Position numbers and translations under genes: made by a program. From assembly GCA_044070495.1 (NCBI GenBank), contig JBIPSI010000003.1:96001-160000 (forward strand): a stretch of DNA of 64,000 nucleotides, in the 5' to 3' direction. A model generated the notes under the pieces. It had not been told where the DNA came from, searched no databases, and was given only the letters and a program-made list of their open reading frames with translations. Origin of the DNA: Spirulina sp. GTDB lineage: Bacteria > Cyanobacteriota > Cyanobacteriia > Phormidesmidales > Phormidesmidaceae. This document shows, piece by piece, positions 9,474 through 36,259 of this stretch; the stretch's first letter is position 1, and the number at the start of each line of letters is the position of its first letter.

Positions 9474-12400
9474 ATGGCTGAAACAGTCTCCATTCTGCTC
9501 CAGGCAATCGATCAAGTGTCGCCCGTTCTCAACGCGATTCGGTCGGGGTTGGCGGGTCTATCCAGCGGGTTTGACTCTGGTGGGCTAGCCAGTGGGGCGG
9601 GGCACATCGGCAGTGCGATCACTGATGCGGGACAGCGGATCATGGCTGTCCAGGGTGACTTGCAGCGGGCCAGTGGGGCGATGGTGGTAGGCGGGGCGGC
9701 GATGGCGGCTCCGATTGTGGCGTTTGGTGCATCGGCGGCGCAGGTGGCAGGGCAGTTCGAGGCCAGCATGAACCAGGTTGCGGCCCTGTCGGGGGAGATG
9801 CCTGGAACCGTGGGCAGCAGTTTTAATGCCATGCGCCAGCAGGCGATGGAACTGGGGCGCACCACTCAATACAGCGCCAGTGAGGCCGCAGGGGCGATGG
9901 CGTTCCTTTCTGCCGCAGGCTTTCAGGCTGAGCAAACCATGGGTGCCCTGCCTGCCACGTTGCAACTGGCGGCGGCGACCAATACCGACCTAGCCCGCAC
10001 AGCGGATATTGCCTCGAATGTGATGACGGGCTATAGCTCCGTGGTGAGCGAGGCCGGGGGCAACTATGAGGTGGCCATGCGCCGGGTGGCCAGCGTGACG
10101 GCGGAGGCCTTTTCTACGTCTAACCTGGGCACCTCGATCAGCGGGTTGGGCGAGTCGATGAAGATGGTGGCTCCCCTGGCCTCTGGGATGGGTATTTCCT
10201 TCGAGCAAACGGCGGCGGCAATTGGGATGCTGGGCAATGCGGGGATTCAGGGCACGATGGCGGGCACCCAGATGGCGATGGTGCTTCAGAAGCTGGCCAA
10301 TCCGGTCGGACGTACCCAGAGCAAAATTGCGGAGCTGGGACTGGAGTTCCATAACGCGGACGGCTCTGTGAAGGACTTTGTGGGCATTTTGGCTGAGCTA
10401 GAGCGGGCCAACGTTAGCGCATCCGATATGTCGGCCCTGTTCGGGGAACAAACCAAGTCCATGATCCCGCTCCTAGAAATGGGGAGTCAGGCGGTGGCTG
10501 ACTATGCGGATCAACTGGCAACCGCCGATGGTCGAGGACGGCTGGAGCAACTTGCCGATGTGCAGATGCAGGGATTCCAGGGCGCTCTCCGGTCGCTGGG
10601 TAGCGCCTGGGAGGGGTTACAGATCTCGTTTATGTCGAGCGGGGTGCTGAATGTGTTTAGCGGCATCATCCAGGGCATTGCGGGCATGGTGCGGGCTTTT
10701 GCGGGGCTTCCGGCTCCGGTGTTCCAGGTGATTGCCGTCATCATGGGCCTAGTTGCCGCTGTGGGTACCGTCATGGCTGCATTAGGCGGGATTGGTCTAG
10801 CGGCCTCCGCCATCATGGGTGGGTTTGCGGCGCTGCCCGTTTTCTTTGGGGCTGTGGGTACGATAGTCAGCGCCCTAGGTGGCATATTTGCTGCCGTTGG
10901 AGCCGTGGCCGCTGGTTCCTTGTTGCCGATTCTGGGCATCGCTGCCGCTGTTGCCGCTGCCGCCTTCCTGATCATCGCGAACTGGTCGGCCATCTCTGGG
11001 GTGTTGGCCGGGGTAGGGGCTGCGATAGCATCGGCATTTCAACCCTTGCTCACCGTCCTGGGGCAAGCGATAGCGGTCATCCAAGCTTATTTCGCTGGCT
11101 TGGTTGAGGGGTTCCGGGCGGGACTGGCTCCCCTTGGTGGCATCTTTGCGGAAGTCGGTGCGGCCTGGGGTTCAGCCTTTCAAGGGGTAGGGGCGGCGTT
11201 TCAGGCTGTCCTAGGCATTGTGGGCCAGGTCGTGGGCGCAATTGCGGGGGCGATTTCGACGACGCTGGGGCTGGGGGCTGGATTTGATGCGGCCACATCG
11301 GGCGCTCGTTCCTTTGGGGCCACGGTGGGCGGGGCTATGGCGGGGGCGGTAGTGGCGACGGCCCGCGTTGTGGGTGGTGTAGCCCAGATCGGGGCAATGC
11401 TGGTGCAGGGGTTGGCGGGGGCGATCTCGGCGGTGGCTGGTGTGGTCGGGGCCGTTCTGGCTCCTATCCTCAGGATTGGCAGCGCCATTGCAGGTGCCCT
11501 CGGTGGTGCCGCCGTCGGCGCGATAGTGGGCCTGGTACAGGGGCTAGGGTCAGCCATCGCGCCAGTGGGTGCCGCCTTCTCCAGTGCGGGTGCGGCCCTT
11601 GGCCTTGCCTTTGAGTCGATCAAGCTGGCTATGGCGGATGTGGGAACGGCGTTCCAGTCGGCCTTCGCTACCATTGGTGCGGCGATTGCTCCCATCAGTG
11701 CAGCCCTGAGTCGTTTGGGAATTGAGTTTGGCGGGGCTGGCAGTGCTGCTCAACTGCTGGGGACAATGGTGGGCCAAGGACTCGCCGCCATCATTATCGG
11801 AGTTGCCAGGGTGGTTACTGTAGTCGCCCAACTGGTGGCGATCTTTGTTCGCCTAGGGGCCGCGATTGTCTCTGGGCTGGCCACCGCCTCTGCCGCCGTC
11901 TCTACCTTGGCCGCAGGAGTCCTGGGCAGATTGAGTGGCGCGATGGCCAGCGTCATTGCCTTGGGCTCTGGGTTGGCCCAAGCCTTCATGAATCCTGTAC
12001 AGACCATCGCGACTCTATTCGCCGCTCTTCCGAGTCAGATTGCCTCAGTAGTCGGCCAAATCACGGGCCTCATGGCGGGTCTCTTCTCAGGGGTTGGCGG
12101 TGGCGGGGGCAGCGGTATTGCGGCGGCGGTTCTCGCGCCCCTGCGGATTATTCCTGCGGCGATTGTAGGGATTGCGGGACAGGTGCAGTCGGCCCTGGGA
12201 GGCCTATTCTCTGGGGCGGGTGCCCAGGGGGCCATTGCTTTTGTGCAGAATATTCTGTCCGCATTGGGTACCCTGCCGGGGGCGATTGCGGGCATTGCCA
12301 GCGGTCTAGCAGGTGCCTTCACGGGGGCAATCACAGGCATCGTGGCTCAGTTCATGGCGCTGGGGACGACCATTGCCTCCACCTTAACCACGGCACTATC

Positions 12401-13610
12401 AACGATTGGCCAGGTCATTGGCAGCGGTCTAACCACAGCGTTTCAGTCCGCGATCTCAGTGGTGCAGGTGGGCCTAGCGACCTTACAGGCTGGGGTGATG
12501 GCAGCGGCAACCCTGATCGGGACTGGGCTATCCTTCGCCTTTCAGTCCGTGCTGACTGCCCTGGCACAGTTCGGGCCAATGATCGCCGGGTTCATCGCGG
12601 TGCTGATGCAGATCCCTCCCATCGCGATGCAGATCGGTATGGCTGTGATGGCGGTAGTAATGCAGGTCATCGCAGGCTTTCAGCAGATCATCATGGCGGG
12701 CCAAATGGTGATCGCCGGATTCATGCAGGTGGGTGTCGCCGTGATGGCCTTCGGAGTTCAGTCCGTCGGTGCAGTTCAGGGGGTGGTTGGTGCGATTGCG
12801 GCCCTGGTGGGTCGGGTACCCAGCATTACGGCGGCATTTAGCGCCATGGCTTCAGCCGTCCTCGGAGTTCTGAATGGCCTAGCGGGGCAGATGTTTGGCG
12901 CGGGTGCCCGCATCGTGCAGCAGATTGCGGCGGGGATTCGATCCGGCATGGGAGTTGTCACATCTGCCATTTCCAGCGTAGCGGCGGCGGTGCGGGGGGC
13001 ATTGCCCTTTTCCCCTGCTGAGTGGGGGCCACTCTCCGACCTGCATAAGACAGGGCCAGGGTTGATCAATACCTTCACCCAAGGCATAGAGCCGGGGCCA
13101 GTGGAACGGGTGCTGGGTTCTGTGATGGGACGGGCGCGGCGGATCATTAGCGAACCCCTGGAGCCGAACATCATTGGGGCCAATGCGGTGGTCGGTTCCG
13201 CCATGGCTGGAGCAATCGCGCTAACCCCGGCCCTTGGCGGGGGCATCATGCCGCCTAATGCCCCCGCCCCACAGGCTCCGACGCTGGCCCAGGGGGTGGG
13301 CCTTGAGGCCATGCGGACGCCGCCGTTCATTCCAGAGGGGCTGACGGGGCCAGGGTTACTAGGGCCACCAGGGTTACCGCCTGAACCCAGGGTGCCCGTG
13401 ATGGAGTCCTCCGCTGCACCAACGGCAAGTGGAGGACTGGGTGGCGCACCGATTACCATCAACCTGACCATGAATGTGACCGTGGAGGGCGGAGGAAACG
13501 AGCAAGACCTGCGCCGCCAGTTCCAAGCCATACTTGCCGAGGGCGGCGATCTGCTAGAGCGAAAGCTGAACGAAATAGCTGCTGATCATCGTCGCCGGGG
13601 GTATAGCTAA
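9474..13610 (+). CDS. Phage tail tape measure protein (TP901-type core)
   Basis: 1378 aa, Ala/Gly-rich; FEASMNQVAALSG..MRQQAMELGRTTQYSASEAA, LGNAGIQGTMAGT; C-terminal LPFSPAEWGPLSDL motif. Confidence 0.95.
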   Translation: MAETVSILLQAIDQVSPVLNAIRSGLAGLSSGFDSGGLASGAGHIGSAITDAGQRIMAVQGDLQRASGAMVVGGAAMAAPIVAFGASAAQVAGQFEASMNQVAALSGEMPGTVGSSFNAMRQQAMELGRTTQYSASEAAGAMAFLSAAGFQAEQTMGALPATLQLAAATNTDLARTADIASNVMTGYSSVVSEAGGNYEVAMRRVASVTAEAFSTSNLGTSISGLGESMKMVAPLASGMGISFEQTAAAIGMLGNAGIQGTMAGTQMAMVLQKLANPVGRTQSKIAELGLEFHNADGSVKDFVGILAELERANVSASDMSALFGEQTKSMIPLLEMGSQAVADYADQLATADGRGRLEQLADVQMQGFQGALRSLGSAWEGLQISFMSSGVLNVFSGIIQGIAGMVRAFAGLPAPVFQVIAVIMGLVAAVGTVMAALGGIGLAASAIMGGFAALPVFFGAVGTIVSALGGIFAAVGAVAAGSLLPILGIAAAVAAAAFLIIANWSAISGVLAGVGAAIASAFQPLLTVLGQAIAVIQAYFAGLVEGFRAGLAPLGGIFAEVGAAWGSAFQGVGAAFQAVLGIVGQVVGAIAGAISTTLGLGAGFDAATSGARSFGATVGGAMAGAVVATARVVGGVAQIGAMLVQGLAGAISAVAGVVGAVLAPILRIGSAIAGALGGAAVGAIVGLVQGLGSAIAPVGAAFSSAGAALGLAFESIKLAMADVGTAFQSAFATIGAAIAPISAALSRLGIEFGGAGSAAQLLGTMVGQGLAAIIIGVARVVTVVAQLVAIFVRLGAAIVSGLATASAAVSTLAAGVLGRLSGAMASVIALGSGLAQAFMNPVQTIATLFAALPSQIASVVGQITGLMAGLFSGVGGGGGSGIAAAVLAPLRIIPAAIVGIAGQVQSALGGLFSGAGAQGAIAFVQNILSALGTLPGAIAGIASGLAGAFTGAITGIVAQFMALGTTIASTLTTALSTIGQVIGSGLTTAFQSAISVVQVGLATLQAGVMAAATLIGTGLSFAFQSVLTALAQFGPMIAGFIAVLMQIPPIAMQIGMAVMAVVMQVIAGFQQIIMAGQMVIAGFMQVGVAVMAFGVQSVGAVQGVVGAIAALVGRVPSITAAFSAMASAVLGVLNGLAGQMFGAGARIVQQIAAGIRSGMGVVTSAISSVAAAVRGALPFSPAEWGPLSDLHKTGPGLINTFTQGIEPGPVERVLGSVMGRARRIISEPLEPNIIGANAVVGSAMAGAIALTPALGGGIMPPNAPAPQAPTLAQGVGLEAMRTPPFIPEGLTGPGLLGPPGLPPEPRVPVMESSAAPTASGGLGGAPITINLTMNVTVEGGGNEQDLRRQFQAILAEGGDLLERKLNEIAADHRRRGYS

Positions 13611-13611
13611 G

Positions 13612-14109
13612 ATGCGCGGATTCTTTGGGCCACTAGAATTTGAGAATGCCTACTCCCCGACGGGGGCCACCCTCAAGCTGGCCAATAAACTCGCGGAACA
13701 CCCCCGATTAGAAACCAAGGGGGTCTTGCAGTGGACGGGATACGATTTGAACCTGGTCGATCTAAAATTTCGCTGGGACTACTGGCATACCAACCCAGCC
13801 GCCCAGGTCGAGACGGCGATGGCAATGTTGATGGCCCATGACGCTTATCCCCTAGTCACCGTCACCGAGGTGAAGGGGACAGTCTACGGAATGCCCTACG
13901 GGGGCAGCGATATTTTTGAGAACGAGTATGTTATGGCCAAGTTTGACATCGACGTAAAGCACACCGACCACTCCGGGCGGCTGACCTGCGTGGAGGCCAC
14001 TGCCCACCTCATCGAGGTGGTTCAGGACGGCGGCATTGGTGGCATTGGGGCAGGCGGGGGCGGGTTCCTGGGCGCAATCGGCGGGTTCATATCGGGATTG
14101 TTCGGCTAA
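13612..14109 (+). CDS. P2 GpU-like tail protein
   Basis: MRGFFGPLEFE...AEHPRLETKGVLQWTG.DL; directly follows the tape measure gene. Confidence 0.7.
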   Translation: MRGFFGPLEFENAYSPTGATLKLANKLAEHPRLETKGVLQWTGYDLNLVDLKFRWDYWHTNPAAQVETAMAMLMAHDAYPLVTVTEVKGTVYGMPYGGSDIFENEYVMAKFDIDVKHTDHSGRLTCVEATAHLIEVVQDGGIGGIGAGGGGFLGAIGGFISGLFG

Positions 14110-14414
14110 TGAGTACGTTTGTTTTCAACAACCAACAACTGATTGAGGACGTGACCCGCAGGCTACACCAAGGCACTCAACCCTTCCGTCAGTTTGTTCC
14201 GAACGTCGATGTTCGCTGGGATGCCCTCAGCCATGCCTTCTACGGCACTCCCTGGCTAGAGGAAATCCTAGTCAGGGCCAACCCCAACCACATCGGCCAA
14301 GTCTTTGCCCCCGCCGGGACAACTTTGATTATCCCGGAACTGGGCAAGGTGGCTTGGGTCGATCCGAATAGCCTGCCCCCATGGGATACTCGGCGGCAAA
14401 GCCGGAGGCGCTAG
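14109..14414 (+). CDS. Tail protein X-like (LysM-like)
   Basis: RWDALSHAFYG...ILVRANP...AGTTLIIP...LPPW pattern. Confidence 0.85.
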   Translation: MSTFVFNNQQLIEDVTRRLHQGTQPFRQFVPNVDVRWDALSHAFYGTPWLEEILVRANPNHIGQVFAPAGTTLIIPELGKVAWVDPNSLPPWDTRRQSRRR

Positions 14415-15464
14415 ATGGTTCAGAGCGGTGGTAACGCCGGGGGTGGGCGGAGGCCCAGACTCCCGGCCTATGACGTGTCCTACGAGGGCGCAGACATCTC
14501 GCTATACATCGAAAAAATCGAGGTTACTGAGGAACTGGAGGGTAGCAGCGACTCGGCTAACCTGGTCGCCAATAACTACCAACTGCACTGGTATAACGAA
14601 TGGCGACCGCGCCTTGGTGATCGCTTCACGGTTAGCCTTGGCTATCGGGATGAAGCCTTTACGGCCCCAGTCACCTACGAGGTGGATGAACCGACCTTTC
14701 GGATTGCGCCGGACGTGATGGAGCTGAAAGGGCTGGCTACCCCAGTGACCGAGAGCCTACGTCAGAAGTCTAGCAATGCCTTTGAACAATGGACGCTGCG
14801 CGAGATGGCCGAGTATGTGGCCGAAAAGCACGGCCTAGAGTTGGTCGGGGAGGTGCCTGAAATTCTCTTTGATCGCGTCACCCAGAAAAATGAAGAGGAT
14901 CTGGCATGGCTGCGTAAGCTCGCCCTCAAGTATGGCGTGATCTTCAAGGTCGAGAGTTGTGAACGCCTGGTCTTTGCCGTCGAGAGCGAGATTGAGGCCA
15001 TGCCGCCGATCTACGAAATCAGTCGTAAGTTGCTGAGTGATGACGGTAGCACCAGCTTTAAGATGCAGACCACGGACACCTATCGGGAGGCCCAGGCCGA
15101 CTACAAAGACCCGAAGACGAATGAATGGATGACCCTGGTCGCCACCTCCGACAATCCAGAGGTGGCGACGGGCGACGTTCTGCGGATTACGGGGGAGCGC
15201 TTCGAGAACGTAGAGCAACTGGAACTCAGGACGGCGGAGGCACTTCGTAAGGCCAATAGCACCCTGGTGGAAGGAACGCTCAACCTAGAGGGTGAGGTGT
15301 ACTGGCGGGCGGGGCTGAACCTCTGGCTACCCGACGACCGAGACGAGTTTGGTTTCTTGGGCGGCAAATACCAGGTTCGCAGCGTTAAGCACACCCTGGT
15401 GCCAGAGGGGGGCCGAAAGCAGGGCTGGCGCTCCGAGTTGTCCGTCCGCAAAGTCTTTGAGTGA
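14415..15464 (+). CDS. Phage late control D / baseplate hub protein
   Basis: DISLYIEKIEVTEELEGSSDSA, RVTQKNEEDLAWLRKLALKYG..FKV, GKYQVRSVKHTL. Confidence 0.9.
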   Translation: MVQSGGNAGGGRRPRLPAYDVSYEGADISLYIEKIEVTEELEGSSDSANLVANNYQLHWYNEWRPRLGDRFTVSLGYRDEAFTAPVTYEVDEPTFRIAPDVMELKGLATPVTESLRQKSSNAFEQWTLREMAEYVAEKHGLELVGEVPEILFDRVTQKNEEDLAWLRKLALKYGVIFKVESCERLVFAVESEIEAMPPIYEISRKLLSDDGSTSFKMQTTDTYREAQADYKDPKTNEWMTLVATSDNPEVATGDVLRITGERFENVEQLELRTAEALRKANSTLVEGTLNLEGEVYWRAGLNLWLPDDRDEFGFLGGKYQVRSVKHTLVPEGGRKQGWRSELSVRKVFE

Positions 15465-15488
15465 CTAAGATAGGGGCACGTTTGGAGG

Positions 15489-16307
15489 ATGGGAATGTCC
15501 AAAAACCTATTCAGCCATAGGCCCGTTAGCCCTGGTGGCGATGTCCATAACGTTCAGCAGGGGCGATTGGCACTGCGCTGGGGCAAGGTGGTGGAGCTAT
15601 CGCCAGAGCATAGCCAAGTCAGGGTTGAGACGGACGAACTCGACGAAATCCCGTCCTACTGGCTTTCCATCCTGTATCCCAAAACCTGGCACGACAAATT
15701 CTATTGGATGCCCGAACTGGATGAGCATGTCTGGTTTCTGTGGGACGAGCAGGGCGAAGAGGGCGTTATCCTGGGCGCGTTCTACTGTGCTGAGGTGCCC
15801 CTGTCGGAACGACACGAACCCACCCCGCACAAAACCGAGATTCACTGGGGCGATGAGAGTTTCTTTATCTATGATCGCGCCGAACATCGGGGCGAGTGGA
15901 ACGTGCGGGGGCAGGTCGAGATCCGCGCTAAGGATGGTCGGATGGAACTCGAAGCCACCGACGATCTACACCTCCATGGCAAGACCATCACCCTCGAAGC
16001 CTGCGAACGCATTACGCTACGGGCTCCCCTAATTATTCTGGAGGGGGCCGTCACGATGAATGGAGGGGCCGGGGGCATTGCCATGATGGGAGCCAGTTTC
16101 ATGGCGGGTGGCATTCCCATTGCTGGCATTGGTAGTGCTGTGGCCGGGGGCCGGGTGGTATCTGGGATTCCAGGGCTGGCAGGTGGATCTGGTGGCGGTG
16201 AGGTCGGCTGCCCGGAGCCAGAGACGGCAGCAGAGGTTGAGGTTGAGCAAGAGGGTGACCTGCGCCGATTGATGGGATACACGCCACCGGGGTTCGGAAA
16301 TGCCTGA
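15489..16307 (+). CDS. Baseplate assembly protein V (spike)
   Basis: OB-fold segment GKVVEL..QVRVE..SYWL..FYWMPELDEHV..GVILGAFY, then beta-helix-like repeats. Confidence 0.9.
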   Translation: MGMSKNLFSHRPVSPGGDVHNVQQGRLALRWGKVVELSPEHSQVRVETDELDEIPSYWLSILYPKTWHDKFYWMPELDEHVWFLWDEQGEEGVILGAFYCAEVPLSERHEPTPHKTEIHWGDESFFIYDRAEHRGEWNVRGQVEIRAKDGRMELEATDDLHLHGKTITLEACERITLRAPLIILEGAVTMNGGAGGIAMMGASFMAGGIPIAGIGSAVAGGRVVSGIPGLAGGSGGGEVGCPEPETAAEVEVEQEGDLRRLMGYTPPGFGNA

Positions 16308-16782
16308 TTCATTTAACGCGCAAGACATTCAGATCGTGCCGCCCGTCCCGCCCATCCCGGCGATCTCGGAGGTGTCGATGCCGCGATCCCTATGGCGGCA
16401 AGCCAAGCTAAGCGAAATTGGCAACGGCGTTGCCGATTCAGTGGGTGCGGTTGTAACCGACCTAGCCGACGTGGCCCAGTGCATTCAGATTATTCTGACC
16501 ACACCCAAGGGCACCGATCCCTACCGCCCAGACTTTGCCCTAGAGATTTTGGACTACCTGGACTGGCCGATCCAAAAGGCTACGCCGTTTGTGGTGCGCG
16601 AAGCCATGCGGGCCGTGCTGACCTGGGAACCCAGGGTAGAGGTGACAAAGGTTGGAGTACGCTACGACGGAGCACCCCTGGGGCAGGCGTACATCTCGGT
16701 TGAATGGCGGCTCAAAGATCCACCTAGATCGACCCAGGTACAGATCACCGAGGCATTGTTTGGGAGGACGGTGTATGGCTGA
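16300..16782 (+). CDS. GpW/gp25 baseplate protein
   Basis: DVAQCIQIILTTPKGTDPYRPDF...YLDWP...WEPRVEV. Confidence 0.92.
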   Translation: MPDSFNAQDIQIVPPVPPIPAISEVSMPRSLWRQAKLSEIGNGVADSVGAVVTDLADVAQCIQIILTTPKGTDPYRPDFALEILDYLDWPIQKATPFVVREAMRAVLTWEPRVEVTKVGVRYDGAPLGQAYISVEWRLKDPPRSTQVQITEALFGRTVYG

Positions 16783-17956
16783 GTCATACCCAACCAGTTT
16801 GTATGATCGCGGGTTTGAACGCCCTCACTTTGCAGATCGTGACCCACAGGCGATCACGGCAGCGGTTATTACGGAAATGGAACAACTGCTGGAACGGCAG
16901 CTATTTCCAGCCCAAATTGAGCGACTCCTGGCCAATTTACAGGCGTACCGCGAGGTCGGCGTTCGGCAGGCCATTCAATGGACAGGCGAACAAAACTTGG
17001 TGGCCTTTGCGACGGGCATTCACCTGGACTACCTCGGTGAGTTGGTGGGCTGCTATCGTCTCGGTGCAGCCCCTGCTATGACGCGCCTCCGGTTTACCCT
17101 ATCCAGGGTGCCAGACTGGGCCGTTGTGGTGCCGGAGGGAACCACCGCAACGCGGGGGCGCGGTGCAGGGCAGATTCACTGGCGCACCGTTCGCAGTGCC
17201 CGGATCAATGGGGCTATGGAGGGCGGTAGCCTGCTCCTGGATGAGGATGGCCTACCCTACGTTGAAGTGGAGGCTCAGGCTTCGACCCATGGCGTGATTG
17301 GCAATGGGTTCCAGCCGGGGGAAATCAATGCCCTTGTGACCGATCCGTTCCCTTGGTTCAAGTCCGTCGAAAACGTCGTGATTAGCCGCCAAGGGGCGGC
17401 GACCGAGTCCGATGATCGCTACCGTCATCGGATCATGCTGGCCCCTGAACAATTGGCCGGGGGCAGTGAGGGCGCTTACCAGTACGCCATCCTGAGCCTG
17501 TCTCCCTACATTACCGATGTTGCCGTCGTCCAAGATAGCCCAGGCCACATCACCGTTCTGCCGCTGACCCATGGCGGGCTACCCACACCAGAACTCCTGG
17601 CCCAGGCATCTAAGGCACTGCGTCCAGACCGTCGCCGTCCCCTAACGGATTGGGTCTCCGTTGCCGCCCCGGTAGAAGTGCCCCTGCACCTCCATGTCAC
17701 CGTTACACCCTACACCGGGCGCAATGGCATCGAGCTAGAGCAACGGCTGCGGGCGGAGCTAGATGTGTGGATGAAGCAGCGTAACCCTGTCCTGGGCGTG
17801 GATTTTGTCCCGTCTCAGGTCTGTGGCGCAATCGCGGGTATTGCCGGGGTCTATCGGGTGGAGGTGACGGCTCCCGCCTACCGGGTGATTGCCCCCAACG
17901 AATGGGCACACTACACCGGACTAACGTTGACAATGGCTGAACCACAGTCAGGCTAG
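16775..17956 (+). CDS. Baseplate J/gp47 protein
   Basis: Start ATG 16775 (ATGGCTGA overlap with W); QNLVAFATGIHLDYLGELVG, GNGFQPGEIN, GAATESDDRYRHRI, RPLTDWVSV. Confidence 0.92.
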   Translation: MAESYPTSLYDRGFERPHFADRDPQAITAAVITEMEQLLERQLFPAQIERLLANLQAYREVGVRQAIQWTGEQNLVAFATGIHLDYLGELVGCYRLGAAPAMTRLRFTLSRVPDWAVVVPEGTTATRGRGAGQIHWRTVRSARINGAMEGGSLLLDEDGLPYVEVEAQASTHGVIGNGFQPGEINALVTDPFPWFKSVENVVISRQGAATESDDRYRHRIMLAPEQLAGGSEGAYQYAILSLSPYITDVAVVQDSPGHITVLPLTHGGLPTPELLAQASKALRPDRRRPLTDWVSVAAPVEVPLHLHVTVTPYTGRNGIELEQRLRAELDVWMKQRNPVLGVDFVPSQVCGAIAGIAGVYRVEVTAPAYRVIAPNEWAHYTGLTLTMAEPQSG

Positions 17957-17962
17957 GGGGCT

Positions 17963-19012: not shown

Positions 19013-19048
19013 CAGGTCAAGTTAGGCCGTCCTGAAACCTACATCACC

Positions 19049-19883: not shown

Positions 19884-19940
19884 TGCTCTTGAGGGCCGTT
19901 GCGGTAGGATGGTGAGCATTGCCAACTGAGCGCGGCCATC

Positions 19941-22190: not shown

Positions 22191-22199
22191 GAGGTTGCC

Positions 22200-26283: not shown

Positions 26284-26286
26284 GCC

Positions 26287-29158: not shown

Positions 29159-29382
29159 TCCGGCTGGCCCCCCTGGATACGGCAGTTTTCGCCATTCTTG
29201 TTACACATCAGCGCCTCAGCCTCTCCGGCCTGCTGTAGTGCCCCGTTCCACATCCCGGCAAACACCAGACTGGCTGGCTGGATAGCATCTACCACGGCGA
29301 AAAAAATGGGACTCAAAACCCCGGCGCTACCCAGGGATACCACGACGACAAGGACGGTCATGTGGCCAACTACCTTAAACAT
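29155..29382 (-). CDS. Small membrane protein (75 aa)
   Basis: Start ATG 29382 overlapping the ATPase stop; MFKVVGHMTVLVVVVSLGSAGVLSPIFFAVV... Confidence 0.65.
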   Translation of the reverse strand: MFKVVGHMTVLVVVVSLGSAGVLSPIFFAVVDAIQPASLVFAGMWNGALQQAGEAEALMCNKNGENCRIQGGQPE

Positions 29383-30631
29383 TGAAGCGATCTCCGTATT
29401 CACTGAACAACACTCGTACCCGTTCGTCCCGGTAGTTCCCGGTCTTCTTGTCGCGCCCCATGTGACCATGGAGCTTCAGCAGTTTGCACAGTCCGGTAAA
29501 ACTGGTCACGCTGCCGTCCTCTAGGGCCGCGTCTACCTTGGCCCGCACCTGGTCGATCCAAGGGGCATCATCAAACACCCAGTTCACTTGGCACTGGCTG
29601 CGGTCGGGCAATGTCTTGACCTGGGCGGTGGAGAAGGGCAGCTTTGAGAAGCTACCGGGCCGCACCACAGCGGTTGTAAATCGGGCGGTCGGCGAAGACG
29701 CAATCTGCGCCTTGAGGGTGGCAATCAGTTCTTTGCTATTGGCCTTGATGTCCTGGGGCCAGGACACCGTAGAGTCCCCCACTGTCATGCCCATAATCAC
29801 AGCGGTCATCGGCCACAGCACGGAGCTATCAATGCCGTTCTCGCCCTTCTTCGGGCTGTGCATTCCTAGGTAGATCCGCATCCCAAACTTGCGCCCACCC
29901 CGGACGATCTCGCCGATCCACTCCAGCGCTTGCTCCCGTCGATCCTTCGGGATACAGTCCTGAAACTCGTCGATGACGATTGCAGCGATGGTTTCGGTTT
30001 TCAAATTTCCGGCCATCCGCCGCTTAAACTCTTGATGAAAAGCCTTCAGCGCTGCAAAGGCATCCTCGCCACTTTTTCGGGCGGGCACCTGCTCCCTGGG
30101 GATACCGTTCAGCCAGGTATCGATAGGCTTTTCCTCGTCCGGGTCATAGTGGGGGTCACAGATAGCCCAGAGACAGTCCAGCCCGTGGGCTTTGACCAAC
30201 ATATCGACGTGATGCTTCAAATTGACGGACTTACTGGTGCCGGGTTCACCGATGTAAACGGTAGACCAAGACCAGAACTCGTTGGACACCCAGGACGCGG
30301 GGGCCAGATCTTCCAGCACCAATGTCCTCATCGGTCTCAGCCGTCGGGCGATTGCTGGCCCCAGGTCGGGGAAGTTGTCCACGTCATTCACGGCTATATC
30401 AAAGTCGTCCAAGACCTGCCCCATGGCAACAACAACTTCGGTAGCCGTTACCTGGTACTCCCGTCGGTAGTAGCGCGAGAGTAAGAGACTGGGCAGGCCC
30501 GTCATACCGCCGATGATGGCGACGGGAAGAGAATTCGCTACTAGACCCAGGACGCAATTCACCGTTCCGGCTAGGCCCAGGACGCCGCTCAACAGCACCA
30601 ACCGAGGCGCTGCATTCTGCTGCCGTTCCAT
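29375..30631 (-). CDS. Membrane-anchored FtsK/HerA/coupling-protein-like P-loop ATPase
   Basis: Two N-terminal TM segments; Walker A-like GEPGTSKS, ICDPH, Walker B IVIDEFQD, GRKFGMRIYL (arginine-finger region). Confidence 0.75.
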   Translation of the reverse strand: MERQQNAAPRLVLLSGVLGLAGTVNCVLGLVANSLPVAIIGGMTGLPSLLLSRYYRREYQVTATEVVVAMGQVLDDFDIAVNDVDNFPDLGPAIARRLRPMRTLVLEDLAPASWVSNEFWSWSTVYIGEPGTSKSVNLKHHVDMLVKAHGLDCLWAICDPHYDPDEEKPIDTWLNGIPREQVPARKSGEDAFAALKAFHQEFKRRMAGNLKTETIAAIVIDEFQDCIPKDRREQALEWIGEIVRGGRKFGMRIYLGMHSPKKGENGIDSSVLWPMTAVIMGMTVGDSTVSWPQDIKANSKELIATLKAQIASSPTARFTTAVVRPGSFSKLPFSTAQVKTLPDRSQCQVNWVFDDAPWIDQVRAKVDAALEDGSVTSFTGLCKLLKLHGHMGRDKKTGNYRDERVRVLFSEYGDRFNV

Positions 30632-31415: not shown

Positions 31416-31751
31416 CTACTGTCCCTCTCTCAAATCTTGCAAAACATAGGCAATCGCCGCTCGTTGGTCATCGGACAGATCCCGTCGTCCGGTCTGTCGG
31501 TAAAGAAATAGGGCCACCTCCGCGTTGATCCATCCCTGCAATTGGGTTCCAACCCAGCGCCATAGGATCAACCAAGCCACCAGGCAACCCGTGATCGCGA
31601 TCAGGCTCCCGGCCTGATAAACATCCAGCAAGTCAAACTGTCGCCCTAGGTAGTAAGCGATCACGATTCGCCGAACGATGGTGCTGGTGACGATGCCACC
31701 CAAGAACACCGTGAGCGCAGTAACCCAGAACAACCTGCTGATTCGTCTCAT
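31416..31751 (-). CDS. Hypothetical 2-TM membrane protein (111 aa)
   Basis: Two hydrophobic helices; 2-9 bp gaps to neighbours. Confidence 0.7.
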   Translation of the reverse strand: MRRISRLFWVTALTVFLGGIVTSTIVRRIVIAYYLGRQFDLLDVYQAGSLIAITGCLVAWLILWRWVGTQLQGWINAEVALFLYRQTGRRDLSDDQRAAIAYVLQDLREGQ

Positions 31752-31760
31752 CCGACTACC

Positions 31761-32132
31761 TCACAGCACTGACAAGTCAACTTCGATGGCTCCCCCACCG
31801 GGGGCGGGTGCTGGGGGAGGGCCGGGGCTGGGGGTGTCGCTTTTGCTGGGCACGGGCGGAGCCTCTCCCGCCTCCAATGCCGCAATCAAGGACTGTACTT
31901 GGTCGGCATACTTGGCGATCAGCGCGGCTTGCCGATTATTCAAAGCTGGATGGTGCTGGGCCTGCTCGGCGTAGACCGTCAGGACGTGGGGCAGCAGGGT
32001 ACAAAGGCTTTTCGCGTAAGGGTGATACTCGATCATTGCTTTATAGATTTCGAGTGCCCTGGCCTGCTCCGGGTTATCCAGGTTGAAGCGTAGAGTCTCT
32101 TGATGGACATTGCCGCCATTACGAGGGGCCAT
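31761..32132 (-). CDS. Putative ParR-like adaptor/DNA-binding protein
   Basis: 123 aa, 8 bp downstream of parM; ETLRFNLDNPEQARALEI beta-helix start and a disordered Pro-rich tail. Assigned mainly by position. Confidence 0.5.
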   Translation of the reverse strand: MAPRNGGNVHQETLRFNLDNPEQARALEIYKAMIEYHPYAKSLCTLLPHVLTVYAEQAQHHPALNNRQAALIAKYADQVQSLIAALEAGEAPPVPSKSDTPSPGPPPAPAPGGGAIEVDLSVL

Positions 32133-32140
32133 GGCACCCC

Positions 32141-33220
32141 CTAACCCATCTGGGCCATCAGGACAGCATTGATCAACTGTGGCTCAATTCCAGGAAGCCG
32201 GACAACTTGAAACCTACCGCCCGTCGCCTTCTCCAGCGGAGCCAATAGGCCACTCGCCCCACCAACGATATAGACCATACCGAGCTGCCCCCAGACCGAG
32301 GCCCAGTTATCCTGCGTGAGCTGGTGCAGCAGATCCCGATTCCACTGCCGTACCACCTCTTCAACCAGTCCCGTGAAGTCATGGGCTTCGCCCGATTGCT
32401 CGTAGATGTAGCGCCGATCCTCCGGCGCATTGCCTCCCTGGACACGAATAATGTCCAAGATGCTGGCCCGGTCAGGCGTATGGCCCCGAACCCGGTGGGC
32501 AAACCCAGACGCAATCGCCCCCGCTAGTTCCTTCATAGCGGGGGCGACAAAGGACACCTGCCCCGACTTTCCGGCACTGCGAATGATGGTGCCCGACTTA
32601 GACCATACCGAGCAGGTCAGGTCGCCCGTCCCGGCATCGATCACCCCGGTCAGGGGATAGCCGCTCAGCGATTGGGGCACCTGTCCCGTTTCCATCGCCC
32701 AACTCCACACCGGGTATCCCTCCGTAACCAGTTCCACACTGGCCGTTGGCTGAAAGCGCTCGAAGCCACGCTGAAACAGTCGGGCATGGAAATCGGCAAC
32801 GGCGTTGCCAATTTGACTCGCCACCTCCTGCCACTGCACTTTGCTGGAGTCGGGCACCAGCAGACGAACCGTAACGGCCCCCGACCGCACCCCGGCCAGC
32901 GCTAGTGCCGCCGCCACCGCAATCGGAGTGTGTTCTACCTTGCCTGCCTCAAATAGTGATCTCCCGCCCAAATCACGGGCCAAATTACCAAACGCATAGG
33001 TCTCTCCCTGGAGGGTCACTAAGACCGACTCTGCATCAGGTCGAGCATCAGCAACCTCTAGCTCACTCAGCCGTTTCACAGACGCGATAAAGGAGACCTG
33101 CCCACCAGCCGTCGCCATCTTGAAATAGCCATTGCCAGCATCAACGCAGACCACCTCCGGCAACCGTACATCGCACTTTCGCTTTGCCCCCGCACTTGCT
33201 ACCACAATCCACCTCCCCAT
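32141..33220 (-). CDS. parM: ParM/StbA-family actin-like ATPase
   Basis: Phosphate-1 VDAGNGYFK, EG connect, phosphate-2 IDAGTGDLT, adenosine IVGGAS, PQLINA. Confidence 0.85.
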   Translation of the reverse strand: MGRWIVVASAGAKRKCDVRLPEVVCVDAGNGYFKMATAGGQVSFIASVKRLSELEVADARPDAESVLVTLQGETYAFGNLARDLGGRSLFEAGKVEHTPIAVAAALALAGVRSGAVTVRLLVPDSSKVQWQEVASQIGNAVADFHARLFQRGFERFQPTASVELVTEGYPVWSWAMETGQVPQSLSGYPLTGVIDAGTGDLTCSVWSKSGTIIRSAGKSGQVSFVAPAMKELAGAIASGFAHRVRGHTPDRASILDIIRVQGGNAPEDRRYIYEQSGEAHDFTGLVEEVVRQWNRDLLHQLTQDNWASVWGQLGMVYIVGGASGLLAPLEKATGGRFQVVRLPGIEPQLINAVLMAQMG

Positions 33221-33500
33221 TCAGATTGAGTCAAATCTGAGGCAGTTCGCCTCAAGTGCGACTAAACTAACACGATTAAATATAGTTGTCACGCATCAGG
33301 AATACGAATAACTGATGGTGATGATGAATTTGCTGAATGCAGCACTGGAACGGCCTACTGAGCCGTAAACTGCTGACTCGATCCGAGGTAAATCCGACGC
33401 ATAAAGCCAATGATTCGCTCGAAGTTGATCAACTTTGAGGCAGGTTGACTCTGGCCACAGCAATTCCCTCTATCTGCCTGCAATCTGCCTCGCTGTAGAG

Positions 33501-34070
33501 TCACTTTGCCTCAGGATGCGGGGACTTACCGCTGAGAATCTTAAAGTTCGGGTCGCCTACCACCAGTCCACAGGTTGCCATCGCGGAGATGGCTTCTCTG
33601 GCCCAGTCGATTTGCTGGGAGGGGCGGAGGGTCAGTGGTTGCGCCAGACCGTACAGAATCTTTTTGACGTTGAGATCGCGACGGGGCTGAAGTCCTTGGA
33701 GGTCTGCGGTAGCCACAAACAGCACATCATAGGAGTACAGCCCGTCAGCATCAGGCCAGTGACTCGCTAGGGCAATCGTAATTTGGTGGGTATGCCGATT
33801 ACCCTGGTTTGCCATCCCATCTAAGTGATCAATCAGGACATGGCAATCGGGTGCAGTGCAGGCTCCTGTTCTGATCGGCATCCAGATGGCCGTCCCTACA
33901 TCCCTAGGGCAGTGTTCAGGATTGCGACGAACGGATAGCAAAAGACCTGCTCCAGGGACGTGGTGGGCGGTGATTAACTCGTAGGGTCGTCGAGAAACTT
34001 TACCCTCACGCCACCAGACCAGCGCGTTCAGCCACTCTGCGATCGCCGTTAGGATTCTGTTAAGACGCAT
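33501..34070 (-). CDS. Hypothetical protein (189 aa)
   Basis: Longest ORF in the interval, ATG start; no recognisable motif. Confidence 0.55.
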   Translation of the reverse strand: MRLNRILTAIAEWLNALVWWREGKVSRRPYELITAHHVPGAGLLLSVRRNPEHCPRDVGTAIWMPIRTGACTAPDCHVLIDHLDGMANQGNRHTHQITIALASHWPDADGLYSYDVLFVATADLQGLQPRRDLNVKKILYGLAQPLTLRPSQQIDWAREAISAMATCGLVVGDPNFKILSGKSPHPEAK

Positions 34071-34171: not shown

Positions 34172-34531
34172 GTGGCAGATGAGCAGAGCCTACAAGAGCA
34201 GATCGAGGTCTTGCATCAAGAGATCATCGTTCTTCGAGATCGGTTGGAGGATCTGGAGCACGGCGTTAAGTCAATTCCGTTCATTATTCCAACTCGGAAA
34301 AGAACTAAGGTCTGGGCCTTTTTGGCTTCAGTGCTAACTACGGCGGCGCTGGTTTTTGCCCTTTCTCCGCACCAGATTCAGGTTGGGAACTGGAGGTATG
34401 ACTCACCGGGCATCAAGCTCGATGTAATCACCAGCGTGGCCGCACTGATCGGTGTATGGGCAACGATTCGGGAACACTTGAGGGATAAGCATGACTATCG
34501 AACCCACGGCGGCGGCTCCAAGCATGGCTGA
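34172..34531 (+). CDS. Small 2-TM membrane protein with N-terminal coiled coil (119 aa)
   Basis: RBS GAGG, GTG start; ATGGCTGA overlap with the downstream GGDEF-EAL gene. Confidence 0.65.
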   Translation: MADEQSLQEQIEVLHQEIIVLRDRLEDLEHGVKSIPFIIPTRKRTKVWAFLASVLTTAALVFALSPHQIQVGNWRYDSPGIKLDVITSVAALIGVWATIREHLRDKHDYRTHGGGSKHG

Positions 34532-36113
34532 GCTGTTAACCCTACTGGAGCAAACAGCGGGGCTGCGACTTTTTATCAAAAACACCGAGGGCCAAATTCT
34601 GTGGGCCAATACAGGCGCGGTCAGCGACCTAGATGACGGAAGCCATATCCATGGCCCAGCTAGCCTCGACAGTGCGCTGGCATCGGACATCGATCAGCGG
34701 GGGGATGAGTTAGCCCTTCAGCGTGGACACAGCCAGGGGATTGAACCGTTGGGTGATCGCTTTATCCAAATCTGGAAGACCCGGATCGAGCGAGAGGGAC
34801 AAACCTATATTTTGGGTGGCTACCTCGACTGCACCGAGCGGGTGCTGAGTGAAGAGCGAGAGCTACGCCGCCTGGAGTACGAAGCCACCCACGACAGTCT
34901 CACCGGGCTGTTGAACCGAGGCTCCTTTTACATGCTCCTAGAGTCGGCCTGCCAACAACGTCGTCCAAAGCTGGCGCTGCTCTATCTCGACCTGAATGGT
35001 TTTAAGCGAATCAACGATATCCAGGGCCACCTAGAGGGAGATCGGCTCCTGCGGGTCGTCGCGAACCACCTTACGGCCTCCGTTCGGAGCGGGGATGCCG
35101 TGGCTCGTATGGGCGGTGACGAATTTACCGTGCTGCTACCGGGAGCCTCATCGGTTGAAGCCATGGTTGTCGCGGATCGCATTAGTAAACTCATGCCGAA
35201 GGACGGTCTCACCACGGCGATGGGAATTGCGGCATGGGAGAAGGGCGATACCCCAGACGCCATTGTGGGGCGAGCTGACGAGCTAATGTTCCTCGCCAAG
35301 CGCGATGGGGTACCGTGCCGCACCTCAAGCACTTGTACAACATCCATTGACTTAGTACAGGCACTCGACCAAGCGCTGGAACAGGGTGAGATCGTTCCCT
35401 ACTTCCAGCCGATTGCGGCCAGCCGAAATCGCCGAATCATTGGCTATGAATTGCTAGCCCGCTGGGTGCGTCCTGGGGGGCAGGTGGTGTCCCCCGCTGA
35501 GTTTATGCCGATCCTGGCGGAGGCCCGCTGGATGTCGCGACTAGACTGGTTGATGTTGCGGGCCGGAATGAGGGCGCTGGAGCACTTTTCCGACCAGTGG
35601 CTCTCGATCAACATCTCTGAAGAAACGCTGTTCGATGCCGAGTTCAGTAATCGGCTGGCCAGGGAGCTAGAGTCCCACTTTGCCTCCACAGAATTTCTGC
35701 GCCTGGAAATCTCCGAGTCCATCGCAATTAGCGTGCAGCCCCTGCTCGAAGGGAGAGATGCGATTACTCAACTCAAAAACCTGGCCAGTGCCGATGTAGA
35801 CATTGGCCTCCTGGTGGATGATTATGGCAGCGCCTACGCTCACCTCCTGGCTATTATGCGCCTCTGTGAGGAAGTTCCCAACGTGCGGGCCATCAAGCTG
35901 GTGGGTGATCTGGTGCGAAACATTGACAACACCCCCGCCAAAATCACGATCTGCCGAAACGCGATTGAACTGGCCCACGGCCTGGGCCTGGAAACCATCG
36001 CCGAGGGCGTTGAGACAGAGGCGGAGCTAATGACCTTACGAGGGCTACACTGCGATTCCGTACAGGGATACTACTTGGGTGTCCCTCTCGCCATGGATGA
36101 ATACCTGCCCTGA
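34524..36113 (+). CDS. PAS-like/GGDEF/EAL c-di-GMP enzyme
   Basis: HDSLTGLLNR, DLNGFKRIND, RSGD I-site, GGDEF; YFQPI, ELLAR, SINIS, LEISE, DDYGSAY, AEGVET, QGY. Alternative start 34491. Confidence 0.93.
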   Translation: MAELLTLLEQTAGLRLFIKNTEGQILWANTGAVSDLDDGSHIHGPASLDSALASDIDQRGDELALQRGHSQGIEPLGDRFIQIWKTRIEREGQTYILGGYLDCTERVLSEERELRRLEYEATHDSLTGLLNRGSFYMLLESACQQRRPKLALLYLDLNGFKRINDIQGHLEGDRLLRVVANHLTASVRSGDAVARMGGDEFTVLLPGASSVEAMVVADRISKLMPKDGLTTAMGIAAWEKGDTPDAIVGRADELMFLAKRDGVPCRTSSTCTTSIDLVQALDQALEQGEIVPYFQPIAASRNRRIIGYELLARWVRPGGQVVSPAEFMPILAEARWMSRLDWLMLRAGMRALEHFSDQWLSINISEETLFDAEFSNRLARELESHFASTEFLRLEISESIAISVQPLLEGRDAITQLKNLASADVDIGLLVDDYGSAYAHLLAIMRLCEEVPNVRAIKLVGDLVRNIDNTPAKITICRNAIELAHGLGLETIAEGVETEAELMTLRGLHCDSVQGYYLGVPLAMDEYLP

Positions 36114-36133
36114 CGACTTTTTCTGCGTATTCA

Positions 36134-36155
36134 TTTTGGGGGCAATTTGGGGAAC
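36134..36155. repeat. Tandem 11-bp imperfect repeats, putative integrase arm-type sites
   Basis: TTTTGGGGGCA / ATTTGGGGAAC about 55 bp inside the tRNA fragment. Confidence 0.4.
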
Positions 36156-36209
36156 GATTCACACCAAGATCGCCAAAATCCTTTTATATCAATACTCTTA
36201 GTCAAGAAG

Positions 36210-36259
36210 GCAGCCGCCTTCTAAGCGGTCGGTCGCTGGTTCGATCCCAGCATGGCCCG
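36210..36259 (+). other. attR: 3' fragment of tRNA-Arg(TCT)
   Basis: GCAGCCGCCTTCTAAGCGGTCGGTCGCTGGTTCGATCCCAGCATGGCCCG: anticodon arm (TCT), T arm GCTGG-TTCGATC-CCAGC and 3' acceptor strand; 5' acceptor strand and D arm absent. Confidence 0.88.

Follow-up and report, generated by a model that had tools for sequence, protein, structure and literature searches.

A probable 92.6-kb Mu-like prophage of Spirulina sp. with a DISARM-bearing island in its tail operon and a conserved ParM-to-hydrolase operon

The window analysed here is a 64-kb stretch of the Spirulina sp. genome (G000), positions 96001-160000 of contig JBIPSI010000003.1 (C3; coordinates marked C3 are those of the contig, unmarked ones those of the window). 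From 9474 to 36260 it holds a contractile-tail baseplate run that faces a ParM-to-wall-hydrolase operon, which a first-pass annotation of the sequence had described as an "orphan", P2-like tail module in a tRNA-integrated element. This region is very probably the right arm of a single temperate contractile-tailed prophage of 92,635 bp, integrated at the 3' end of tRNA-Arg(TCT). The prophage is apparently intact and, from its gene order and nearest cultured sheaths, its morphogenesis would be of the Mu/BcepMu type rather than the P2 type. The baseplate looked orphan because an island pushes its partner genes 26 kb away, past the left edge of the window.

The sole tRNA on contig C3, found by an ARAGORN search of the whole genome, is tRNA-Arg(TCT) at C3:39552-39624, to the left of the window; the window itself contains no whole tRNA. 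The last 47 bp of this gene have one second copy, identical at 47 of 47 positions, and no further one:

36214-36260 (C3:132214-132260), plus strand: attR, a 47-bp direct repeat of the 3' part of tRNA-Arg(TCT)

The element extends over C3:39579-132260, with the intact tRNA 92.6 kb to the left of attR, and integration at this gene, as first proposed, is borne out by the empty site of a congeneric genome (G737), in which the left flank with its tRNA ends at C1:216686 and the right flank resumes 25 bp on, at 216711. A three-way alignment with this genome makes the classical attB/attL/attR relation visible, and on the basis of the empty site and the alignment we take the whole 92.6 kb to be one insertion. 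The insertion, absent from a relative, carries an integrase (see below) and is bounded by att repeats, as a temperate prophage should be. With a gpD-like query, 0 of the 52 other species of the genus have the prophage. Among nine sequencing runs examined as Logan contigs, which are low-depth contigs from other samples, two (X1 and X2) contain the right-flank DNA in nearly the same sequence, covered about 3-4x; no contig from the nine bridges the att site, and the missing prophage cover there is uninformative.

Inside the window, positions 9474-27669 of the plus strand form an uninterrupted, tightly packed run from the tape measure through U, X, D, V, W, J and I to small open reading frames (ORFs), paralogs and fibres; the series from tape measure to I and the fibres is that of the first-pass annotation. 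Pfam and PHROGs scans covered 33 ORFs in window positions 1-41 kb and, left of the window, 65 ORFs (Pfam) and 53 ORFs (PHROGs). The nearest relative is an uncultivated viral genome (UViG) of 21.8 kb, IMGVR_UViG_3300000362_000004 (locus L031), which comprises the tape-measure end, the baseplate, the fibres and the whole converging operon.

9474-13610, plus strand: tape measure protein, 1378 residues (PF10145 at 7.5e-36, phrog_1533 at 4.7e-69)
13612-14109, plus strand: gpU-like tail protein (PF06995 at 5.2e-10; 83% identity to the UViG homolog)
14109-14414, plus strand: gpX-like tail protein (phrog_46 at 1e-8; PF05489 at 8.8e-4, below the Pfam cutoff)
14415-15464, plus strand: gpD-like late tail protein (phrog_52 at 8.6e-46; 88% identity to the UViG homolog, dN/dS 0.03)
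15489-16307, plus strand: gpV-like baseplate hub/spike (PF04717 at 3e-5, phrog_9992)
16300-16782, plus strand: gpW/gp25-like baseplate wedge (PF04965 at 1.7e-10, phrog_43 at 7.5e-25)
16775-17956, plus strand: gpJ-like baseplate wedge (PF04865 at 4.7e-40)
17963-19012, plus strand: gpI-like baseplate protein (PF09684 at 3.5e-16)
19049-27669, plus strand: distal tail/fibre block of 141-residue and 138-residue ORFs, two paralogs of about 750 residues, a 559-residue fibre-like protein and a 460-residue LamG protein
19941-22190 and 22200-24461, plus strand: the paralogs of about 750 residues (phrog_17470 at 1e-114 and 7e-136)

The tape-measure ATG at 9474 is the first start past an in-frame TGA at 9447 (8 codons upstream), and the gpJ-like protein probably starts at ATG 16775, within a longest ORF from 16652 (the UViG homolog has 393 residues). 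Further matches in the fibre block are to phrog_9017 and PF13385, and all of its members have syntenic UViG homologs at 37-56% identity. The tape measure, 1378 residues here versus 747-883 in five related prophages, implies a much longer tail in this lineage; at about 0.15 nm per residue, the expected length would be roughly 200 nm. No capsid, portal, terminase, sheath or tube family is matched by any of the 33 ORFs of the window scan, in agreement with the first-pass annotation, which had reported none of these genes in its 36 kb.

In the left arm of the same att-bounded element, the sheath, tube, chaperone, capsid, MuF and terminase genes lie at C3:59.9-79.8 kb, 16-36 kb to the left of the window start. 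On the plus strand the order is small terminase, probable large terminase, probable portal, MuF, a gene in the scaffold position, major capsid protein, tail completion, Gp37, sheath and tube, with Phage_tail_S/Gp37 as the neck genes.

Left arm, plus strand: small terminase, TerS (phrog_309 at 2.6e-19)
Left arm, plus strand: probable large terminase, TerL, 668 residues (phrog_675 at 7.5e-6, a weak match)
Left arm, plus strand: probable portal, 505 residues (position, and 27-30% identity to proteins of the relatives)
Left arm, plus strand: MuF (PF04233)
Left arm, plus strand: major capsid protein (phrog_29 at 5.8e-12)
Left arm, plus strand: tail completion protein (phrog_26)
C3:76820-78331, plus strand: sheath (phrog_23 at 3.8e-79)
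C3:78349-78891, plus strand: tube (PF04985 at 1.3e-20)

Neither the TerL nor the portal candidate has a sequence match in the PDB; the corresponding portal proteins of the relatives give sub-threshold SPP1_portal matches in three of four cases. For the major capsid protein, 50,697 phage records gave no match, and it has no cultured relative. Directly past the tube, the ORF at C3:78981-79601 has an in-phase heptamer G GGA AAG 11 codons ahead of its stop, and reading in the -1 frame is open for 63 more codons, to 79759; from this hallmark arrangement, for which lambda G/GT is the precedent, we read the ORF as a tail assembly chaperone with a -1 frameshift site. The element therefore holds both halves of a contractile prophage: head and packaging genes (TerS, capsid and MuF, with TerL weakly matched and the portal assigned by position and low identity) and a sheath, tube, frameshifted chaperone, tape measure and baseplate.

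The 374-residue ORF adjoining the tRNA has no match in the Pfam, PHROGs or NCBIfam libraries; several of its 84 homologs are named integrase, site-specific integrase or excisase A (XisA), some carry PF00589, and judged by these homologs it is an XisA-family tyrosine integrase. It is followed by about 20 kb of minus-strand genes with Dam-type methylases, an RDF-like Gp3 domain, LPD29, DUF3560, RadC and ParB, which by their families are early and anti-restriction-type genes. From the tRNA, then, the order would run integrase, early genes, head to chaperone, island, tape measure through baseplate to fibres, ParM operon, GGDEF-EAL gene and attR. Extending to the left, as the first-pass annotation had advised, recovered the integrase, the head, sheath and tube genes and the intact tRNA but, among the ORFs scanned with Pfam, PHROGs and NCBIfam, no Rep-type family. 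That annotation had itself held that a complete head plus sheath/tube module further left would make the element a conventional (plasmid-)prophage, and since such a module is found there, this is the reading that we adopt.

The two halves belong together in other genomes as well. A sheath search across the class matched 7 of 401 genomes (G000 included), and the five best relatives, with sheath identities of 33-38%, all have an unbroken block of portal, MuF, capsid, sheath, tube, tape measure, U, X, D, V, J and I; because 5 of 5 keep both halves in one run, we conclude that the Spirulina element is one phage and not two. The label "P2-like" does not hold. Judged against the gene orders of P2 and Mu, the sequence of sheath, tube, chaperone, tape measure, U/X/D-like genes, V, W, J and I resembles that of Mu, and the nearest cultured sheaths are of the Mu/BcepMu type (36-37.5% identity over 95% of the protein). 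With the Mu/BcepMu-type myoviruses (Burkholderia phage BcepMu, phiE255) the element shares the sheath, the MuF-type head protein and the Phage_tail_S/Gp37 neck genes. Unlike them, it integrates at a tRNA by an XisA-family tyrosine integrase and not by transposition, its capsid is unmatched in phage records, and it has 92.6 kb, a 25.7-kb island in the tail operon and the 1378-residue tape measure.

This island occupies C3:79760-105473 (25,714 bp, of which the window holds 1-9473) between the tail-chaperone and tape-measure genes. The GC content is 50.3% in the island, compared with 56.9% and 58.8% in the arms and 56.7% in the genome; it falls right after the stop of the chaperone extension (C3:79759) and recovers right before the tape-measure start (105474). 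The island thus fits exactly into the intergenic space that separates the chaperone's frameshift extension from the start codon of the tape measure, and neither gene is broken. The distance from tube to tape measure is 26,582 bp here versus 454-862 bp in 5 of 5 relatives, whose gap holds one chaperone-sized ORF, and the "split structural region" suggested at first is in this sense confirmed.

Island, outside the window: NB-ARC/STAND-WD40 protein (Pfam)
Island: DrmC (PADLOC, 1.7e-100)
Island: DrmB (PADLOC, 1.1e-86)
Island: DrmA (PADLOC, 3.2e-304)
Between DrmA and DrmD, 3' end at window 1-137, minus strand: DrmMI, a 1347-residue N6-adenine methylase of the Eco57I/MmeI type (Pfam, NCBIfam)
178-3405, minus strand: DrmD (PADLOC, E = 0)
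3405-3866, minus strand: EVE protein (Pfam/PADLOC)
4360-5058, minus strand: LexA paralog, LexA_DNA_bind plus Peptidase_S24 (Pfam)
5852-7708, plus strand: NERD-UvrD, a candidate defence helicase (PADLOC, 6e-217)
7886-9031, plus strand: TRADD_N-pentapeptide protein (Pfam)
9150-9341 (C3:105150-105341), intergenic, before the tape-measure gene: two adjacent dispersed repeats of about 95 nt

Genes drmD, drmMI, drmA, drmB and drmC are contiguous on one strand (C3:85841-99405), and by gene content the set is a complete class 1 DISARM with all five genes, here placed within a prophage tail operon and with predicted activity. Apart from a sub-threshold OrfB_IS605 match inside DrmA, a Pfam scan of the island gave no integrase or transposase, and its borders show no direct or inverted repeats beyond chance (longest shared words 9-10 nt). 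The first of the two repeats of about 95 nt forms a long nested hairpin; both are found on at least ten other contigs of the genome at 73-86% identity, and because of this dispersal over the host contigs they look like miniature inverted-repeat transposable elements. As for the LexA paralog, we rejected the idea that it is a host core gene, since a second LexA is present at C55:3763-3957; the paralog could couple island or prophage genes to DNA damage. Defence cargo in a tail operon, at the chaperone/tape-measure junction, is in our view unusual both in place and in size.

The other special feature of the right arm is the minus-strand operon that converges on the tail run from 33220 to 27765. 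We count seven genes, or the eight of the first-pass annotation if the conserved gene upstream of parM is included (L038 below is a metagenome contig).

33501-34070, minus strand: conserved 189-residue protein upstream of parM, 55% identical to the syntenic UViG homolog
33229-33513: candidate operator/parC-like sites, three copies of about 16-17 bp of TGAGGCA-N3/4-TGACTC in both orientations, of putative function
32141-33220, minus strand: ParM-family actin-like ATPase, 359 residues (AlphaFold model, Foldseek, PDB profiles)
31761-32132, minus strand: 123-residue candidate ParR-like adaptor directly downstream of parM, with a proline-rich linker and a conserved C-terminal tail
31416-31751, minus strand: 111-residue protein with two transmembrane-like segments, homologs in L031 and L038
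30631-31413, minus strand: 260-residue bitopic protein, an N-terminal transmembrane segment and then a helical domain (hydropathy)
29375-30631, minus strand: 418-residue FtsK/HerA-superfamily ATPase with two N-terminal transmembrane helices
28943-29158, minus strand: 71-residue protein with a hydrophobic N-terminus and an acidic proline-rich tail; small membrane ORFs in the same place in L031 and L038
27765-28961, minus strand: membrane-anchored bifunctional peptidoglycan hydrolase, 398 residues (PF00877 at 1.4e-7)

The parM gene called at first is real, for the 359-residue protein is, by its predicted structure, a true ParM-fold ATPase, with the fold of a type II ParMRC motor. The model (from a nine-row alignment) has a pLDDT of 87.2 and a pTM of 0.83. 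Of the 21 listed Foldseek matches, ranked 1-25, 18 are of the ParM/Alp family (Dh-cParM1, pCBH ParM, CorM, Alp7A, Bacillus thuringiensis ParM, R1 ParM, pSK41 ParM, Alp12 and Cbc-ParM) and three are chains of the archaeal actin homolog Ta0583; the top ParM-family matches reach E values of 3.6e-16 to 1e-13, and MreB and Hsp70 rank below this family. Profile matches in the PDB point the same way (pCBH ParM at 4e-4, CorM at 5e-4), and the nucleotide-binding motifs DxGxG, DxGxGxxT and GGA are invariant in nine of nine sequences. Upstream, 3 of the window's 10 TGAGGCA matches fall within the 285 bp before parM.

For the ParM protein and its 123-residue neighbor, complex prediction gave an ipSAE of 0.56, against 0.00 for the best control, which was rated "weak support"; the mark applied is reached by 116 of 157 solved complexes and by 2 of 215 mismatched pairs, and 18 of the 157, as well as both mismatches, reach it with values of 0.60 or under. 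At least 29% of contacts agree between the runs, and the partner has a pLDDT of at least 57. As ParM-ParR complexes have been solved, the pass may only reflect likeness to them.

The 418-residue protein is, from its motifs and predicted fold, a membrane-anchored FtsK/HerA ATPase, and the DNA-translocase type assigned to it at first is thus upheld. It has Walker A and B motifs and an invariant GRKF motif, its model (pLDDT 78.3) places helices of transmembrane length at 8-31 and 35-58, where hydropathy agrees, and its profile matches in the PDB are a DUF87 protein (9.5e-9) and HerA (6.2e-6). Foldseek neighbors are FtsK motor domains, the pCW3 coupling protein TcpA and HerA; Atlas neighbors are FtsK/SpoIIIE clusters, many of them viral; in Pfam it has a sub-threshold AAA_22 match alone. 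The last gene encodes a protein with a transmembrane segment (49-67), an NlpC/P60 domain and a C-terminal SLT-like domain (37% identity to the SLT domain of its L038 counterpart). Its catalytic domains vary by locus: NlpC/P60 with an SLT-like domain here, M23 with phage lysozyme in the UViG, and M23 with SLT in L038. Among the remaining members, the 111-, 71- and 189-residue proteins have no significant Pfam match, and the 260-residue protein has no family in Pfam, PHROGs or NCBIfam and no usable Atlas match. Scans for promoters and terminators yielded no signal above chance.

By its gene content and synteny the operon is a conserved phage module, for which we propose a putative function below. 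All seven genes stand in the same order beside the fibres in the UViG, with 70% identity for ParM and 51% for the ATPase, and L038 repeats the order (a ParM-like protein at 99.6% by hhalign, proteins of 119, 108 and 253 residues, the ATPase, small ORFs and the hydrolase) in an upstream context that is different, yet phage-like (Sipho_Gp157). Identities to the UViG run from 88% (gpD-like) down to 37-56% (fibres), ORF lengths are equal in several pairs (165/165, 349/349, 123/123 and 111/111 residues) and the structural ORFs are all full length; the hydrolases share 22% identity over 147 aligned residues. The dN/dS is 0.03-0.25 in 9 of 11 computable gene pairs, 0.49 for the 111-residue protein and 0.62 for the hydrolase; as it is undefined for 8 of the 19 pairs, with dS saturated or undefined in all 19, we regard it as only a coarse sign of purifying selection. 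At this resolution the comparison speaks for purifying selection over a long time on both the tail and the ParM operon, and is silent on present activity.

The module is rare. A search of 5.8 billion proteins gave 13 ATPase clusters and 9 ParM clusters, the window's own being among the ParM clusters; IMG/VR gave one contig, and the ATPase has no relative in 72,556 plasmid records. Nostoc phage N1 and Anabaena phage YongM2 encode distant homologs of the ATPase, likewise with two transmembrane segments, in their early/replication regions. When the phylum was searched with the ATPase alignment, 5 of 401 genomes gave matches at E <= 1e-5; apart from G000, these were short P-loop matches of about 1e-6 within far longer frames, which we did not count as relatives. 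Metagenome contigs searched with the ParM alignment and viral contigs searched with the chaperone gave none; viral contigs gave the same UViG and nothing else with two alignments (A4 and A2), and four distant loci (30-38% identity) with the tape-measure N-terminus. Two loci from a sheath search of genome contigs were disregarded, being 33-residue matches in Treponema metagenome-assembled genomes.

Between the operon and the right border lies one more gene, so that the succession of a cyclic di-GMP (c-di-GMP) gene and attR, given already in the first-pass annotation, is correct.

34491-36113, plus strand: GGDEF-EAL (c-di-GMP) gene, adjoining attR (PF00990 at 4.9e-33, PF00563 at 8.9e-52)

Its GGDEF and ELL motifs are intact, and from its position and families it is likely a moron. 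In the UViG the same position (L031:12-635) is held by a gene with a sub-threshold HD_5 match, and both may be second-messenger morons at the att-proximal end.

A few further observations concern the left arm and the rest of the genome. In the early region, a 422-residue protein (L001:12208-13476, that is C3:48208-49476, minus strand) has a Gp3-like "recombination directionality factor" (RDF) domain, PF18897 at 8e-27; RDFs of this family are known from serine-integrase phages, and the prophage here has a tyrosine integrase. The terminase genes are flanked by a DAM-like-phage1 plus GNAT-phage-like fusion (L002:3945-5345, plus strand) and a DUF5131 protein (L002:8744-9586, minus strand), which, together with two Dam-type methylase fusions in the early region, suggest a heavy investment in DNA modification or anti-restriction. 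In the distantly related prophage of genome G213, an ATPase gene of the AAA_15/AAA_21 (OLD/Abi) type at L019:8232-10088 lies between the terminase region and the portal, another defence-type insert in a morphogenesis block of this phage group. Finally, G000 has at least two further sheath loci (C40:14836-15300 and one on C7) and two further Baseplate_J loci; these contractile loci, at C40:29181-29897 (Baseplate_J), C7:52467-52775 and C30:49816-50334, belong to other contractile systems or prophages and are unrelated to the element.

Several points weigh against a single, working prophage. TerL and the portal are weakly assigned, and the element has neither a recognised replication gene nor, apart from the ParM-operon hydrolase, a recognised endolysin or holin (Pfam, PHROGs); the 123-residue protein has no ParR, ribbon-helix-helix or other family match in Pfam or by profile against the PDB. 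Most island genes are antisense to the late operon and the island adds 25.7 kb to a phage of about 66.9 kb, which may leave the prophage unpackageable or its tape-measure and baseplate genes silenced; a promoter-like site ahead of the tape-measure gene does not exceed what chance would give. Because no close relative spanning the chaperone/tape-measure junction was found, the "insertion" of the island is read from relatives at only 33-38% sheath identity, and in a draft of 74 contigs the island borders could in principle be chimeric joins. A prophage that is complete on paper yet defective, with its late operon split and its genome oversized by the island, would be a grounded carrier of defence and c-di-GMP genes that will decay. 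The widened gap between tube and tape measure, the antisense orientation, the host-type dispersed repeats that have colonised the island's right border and the failure of the gpD-like query to find the prophage in 52 of 52 other species would suit this explanation, which we consider unlikely but serious; it sits poorly with att repeats that are still identical, with an integrase, frameshift site, tape measure, baseplate and fibre ORFs that are open and full length, with an island ending exactly within an intergenic gap, and with the defence-type gene that the G213 relative tolerates between terminase and portal. Hardly credible, to our mind, is the earlier idea of a mobile element with only tail-tip/host-range parts, acting as a tailocin or retooling the tail of a helper. 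The window's first 36 kb, which have no head, sheath or tube gene, invited it, and the sheath loci on C40 and C7 could in principle be such helpers, but the att-bounded element has terminase, MuF, capsid, neck, sheath, tube and chaperone genes of its own, both halves form one conserved morphogenesis block in the relatives, and the empty site indicates that the 92.6 kb came as one insertion. Both the tailocin and the helper-retooling readings fall because the element carries more than tail-tip parts. An extracellular contractile injection system or a type VI secretion system was likewise rejected, given the tape-measure-first Mu-type order, the head genes and the att sites, as was a tandem array of two elements, there being only two att copies and relatives that keep the halves contiguous.

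Two further alternatives concern the operon. An integrative phage-plasmid would live as a low-copy circular episome, segregated by ParM and the adaptor (and ParB), and integration would be its alternative state. To this the true ParM-fold ATPase, the candidate adaptor with three upstream repeat sites, the ParB gene of the left arm and a module under purifying selection lend some weight, yet the element sits in the chromosome with its integrase and with att repeats that match perfectly, the 98 scanned ORFs (33 plus 65, Pfam) include no recognisable plasmid replication initiator, the ATPase is without relatives among the plasmid records, and the prophage actin/adaptor pair AlpAC is known to serve replication after induction, not plasmid life (PMC4446434). 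We judge a phage-plasmid to be distinctly improbable. It is also rather unlikely that the distal part of the operon is a lysis cassette, with the 111-residue protein as holin, the 260-residue protein as spanin-like partner, and the 71-residue protein and tethered hydrolase as the endolysin set. No other endolysin or holin is recognised in the element, the last gene is always a two-domain wall hydrolase with catalytic domains swapped between relatives as in endolysins, its partners are small membrane proteins, and a terminator-like hairpin past the ATPase gene could part two units, though it is at chance level. However, all three loci have the conserved two-transmembrane FtsK/HerA ATPase at the centre of the set, translational coupling ties the genes to parM, and lytic Nostoc and Anabaena phages keep the distant homolog of this ATPase in their early/replication region. 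A type IV secretion or conjugation system we rejected as well, since no VirB4, VirB6-like protein or relaxase is found in the operon or in the rest of the element (Pfam, PHROGs, NCBIfam), only a coupling-protein-like ATPase and a hydrolase.

How the temperate prophage might work can be outlined as follows. As long as the phage is lysogenic, the c-di-GMP gene and the island, with its STAND-WD40, class 1 DISARM, NERD-UvrD and other genes, would be cargo serving the host. Upon induction, which we presume to be possible, the integrase would excise a circle at the 47-bp repeats, the 92.6-kb form would be packaged, and the tail genes would be expressed past the island. By analogy with AlpAC in prophage CGP3, the ParM filament and its adaptor may position or segregate the circular phage DNA, and the co-transcribed membrane set (FtsK/HerA pump, three small membrane proteins and bifunctional hydrolase) may handle DNA at the envelope. 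Beyond this, it is a long shot that the operon moves the excised double-stranded phage genome through the septum into neighboring cells of the filament. Homologs of the membrane-anchored ATPase in phages of the filamentous Nostoc and Anabaena would fit such a role, which resembles the TraB/Spd-driven spread of plasmids in Streptomyces hyphae; if it were true, a temperate phage would colonise a whole multicellular filament without particles.

Parallels in the literature are partial. Prophage-encoded defence hotspots are established in P2-like phages and P4 satellites (Rousset et al. 2022, PMC9122126), and in P2 the hotspot is described between the replication gene gpA and the portal gene gpQ, beside cos (PMC9122126). 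As there, defence systems would be variable cargo at a fixed junction of a conserved prophage; unlike there, the cargo here is inside the tail operon, measures 25.7 kb and comprises a complete DISARM with at least three other defence-type genes. The relatives found are all distant, and all of them are empty at the chaperone/tape-measure site.

For the operon, the pair AlpC/AlpA of the Corynebacterium glutamicum prophage CGP3 is, as described, needed for efficient replication of phage DNA (PMC4446434); it consists of an actin-like ATPase co-transcribed with a small adaptor that binds its own upstream sites and links circular phage DNA to the filaments. Our candidate pair is likened to it by arrangement and differs in that its operon also encodes a membrane FtsK/HerA ATPase, a wall hydrolase and three membrane proteins. 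Bacillus phage 0305phi8-36 has a "DNA translocation operon", described informatically (Pathria et al. 2012, PMC3357382), with an actin-like protein, a conjugation-type ATPase, a VirB6-like protein and a relaxase, and its deletion is given there as without a laboratory growth defect (PMC3357382). Common to both are an actin-like (MreB/ParM-type) protein, a conjugation-type translocase ATPase and membrane proteins in a phage operon; the Bacillus phage operon, as far as that account goes, has a MobC-like relaxase, a VirB6-like protein and a translocase without transmembrane helices, whereas in the Spirulina prophage no relaxase or VirB6-like protein is found among the scanned ORFs (Pfam), the ATPase has two transmembrane helices and a bifunctional hydrolase comes last. 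With type II ParMRC systems (R1, pCBH) and with CorMR, presented in its source as a chromosomal cyanobacterial ParMR derivative controlling cell shape (bioRxiv 10.1101/2025.06.27.661541), the operon shares the ParM fold, a small gene directly downstream and repeats upstream of parM. It differs in its 13-19% identity to solved ParMs, in having only three repeat sites, in a downstream protein lacking the ParR-type match, and in belonging to an integrated phage in which no plasmid replicon is recognised. A search of the full-text literature, judged by titles and abstracts, found no published description of the ParM module or of the island position.

The orphan look of the baseplate was the effect of a window edge combined with a large insertion, and it cautions against reading phage modules as "orphan". 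Two features stand above the ordinary, the island at the chaperone/tape-measure junction and the ParM, FtsK/HerA and hydrolase operon. A DISARM-bearing block of 25.7 kb in a tail operon raises the question of whether tail expression and genome packaging are still possible. The operon combining ParM, a membrane FtsK/HerA ATPase and a wall hydrolase is rare and conserved, and it is a trait of this cyanophage lineage. The literature has included phage "DNA translocation operons" since 2012 with no function assigned to them, and a genetically tractable filamentous cyanobacterium that carries such an operon would make the question of its function testable.

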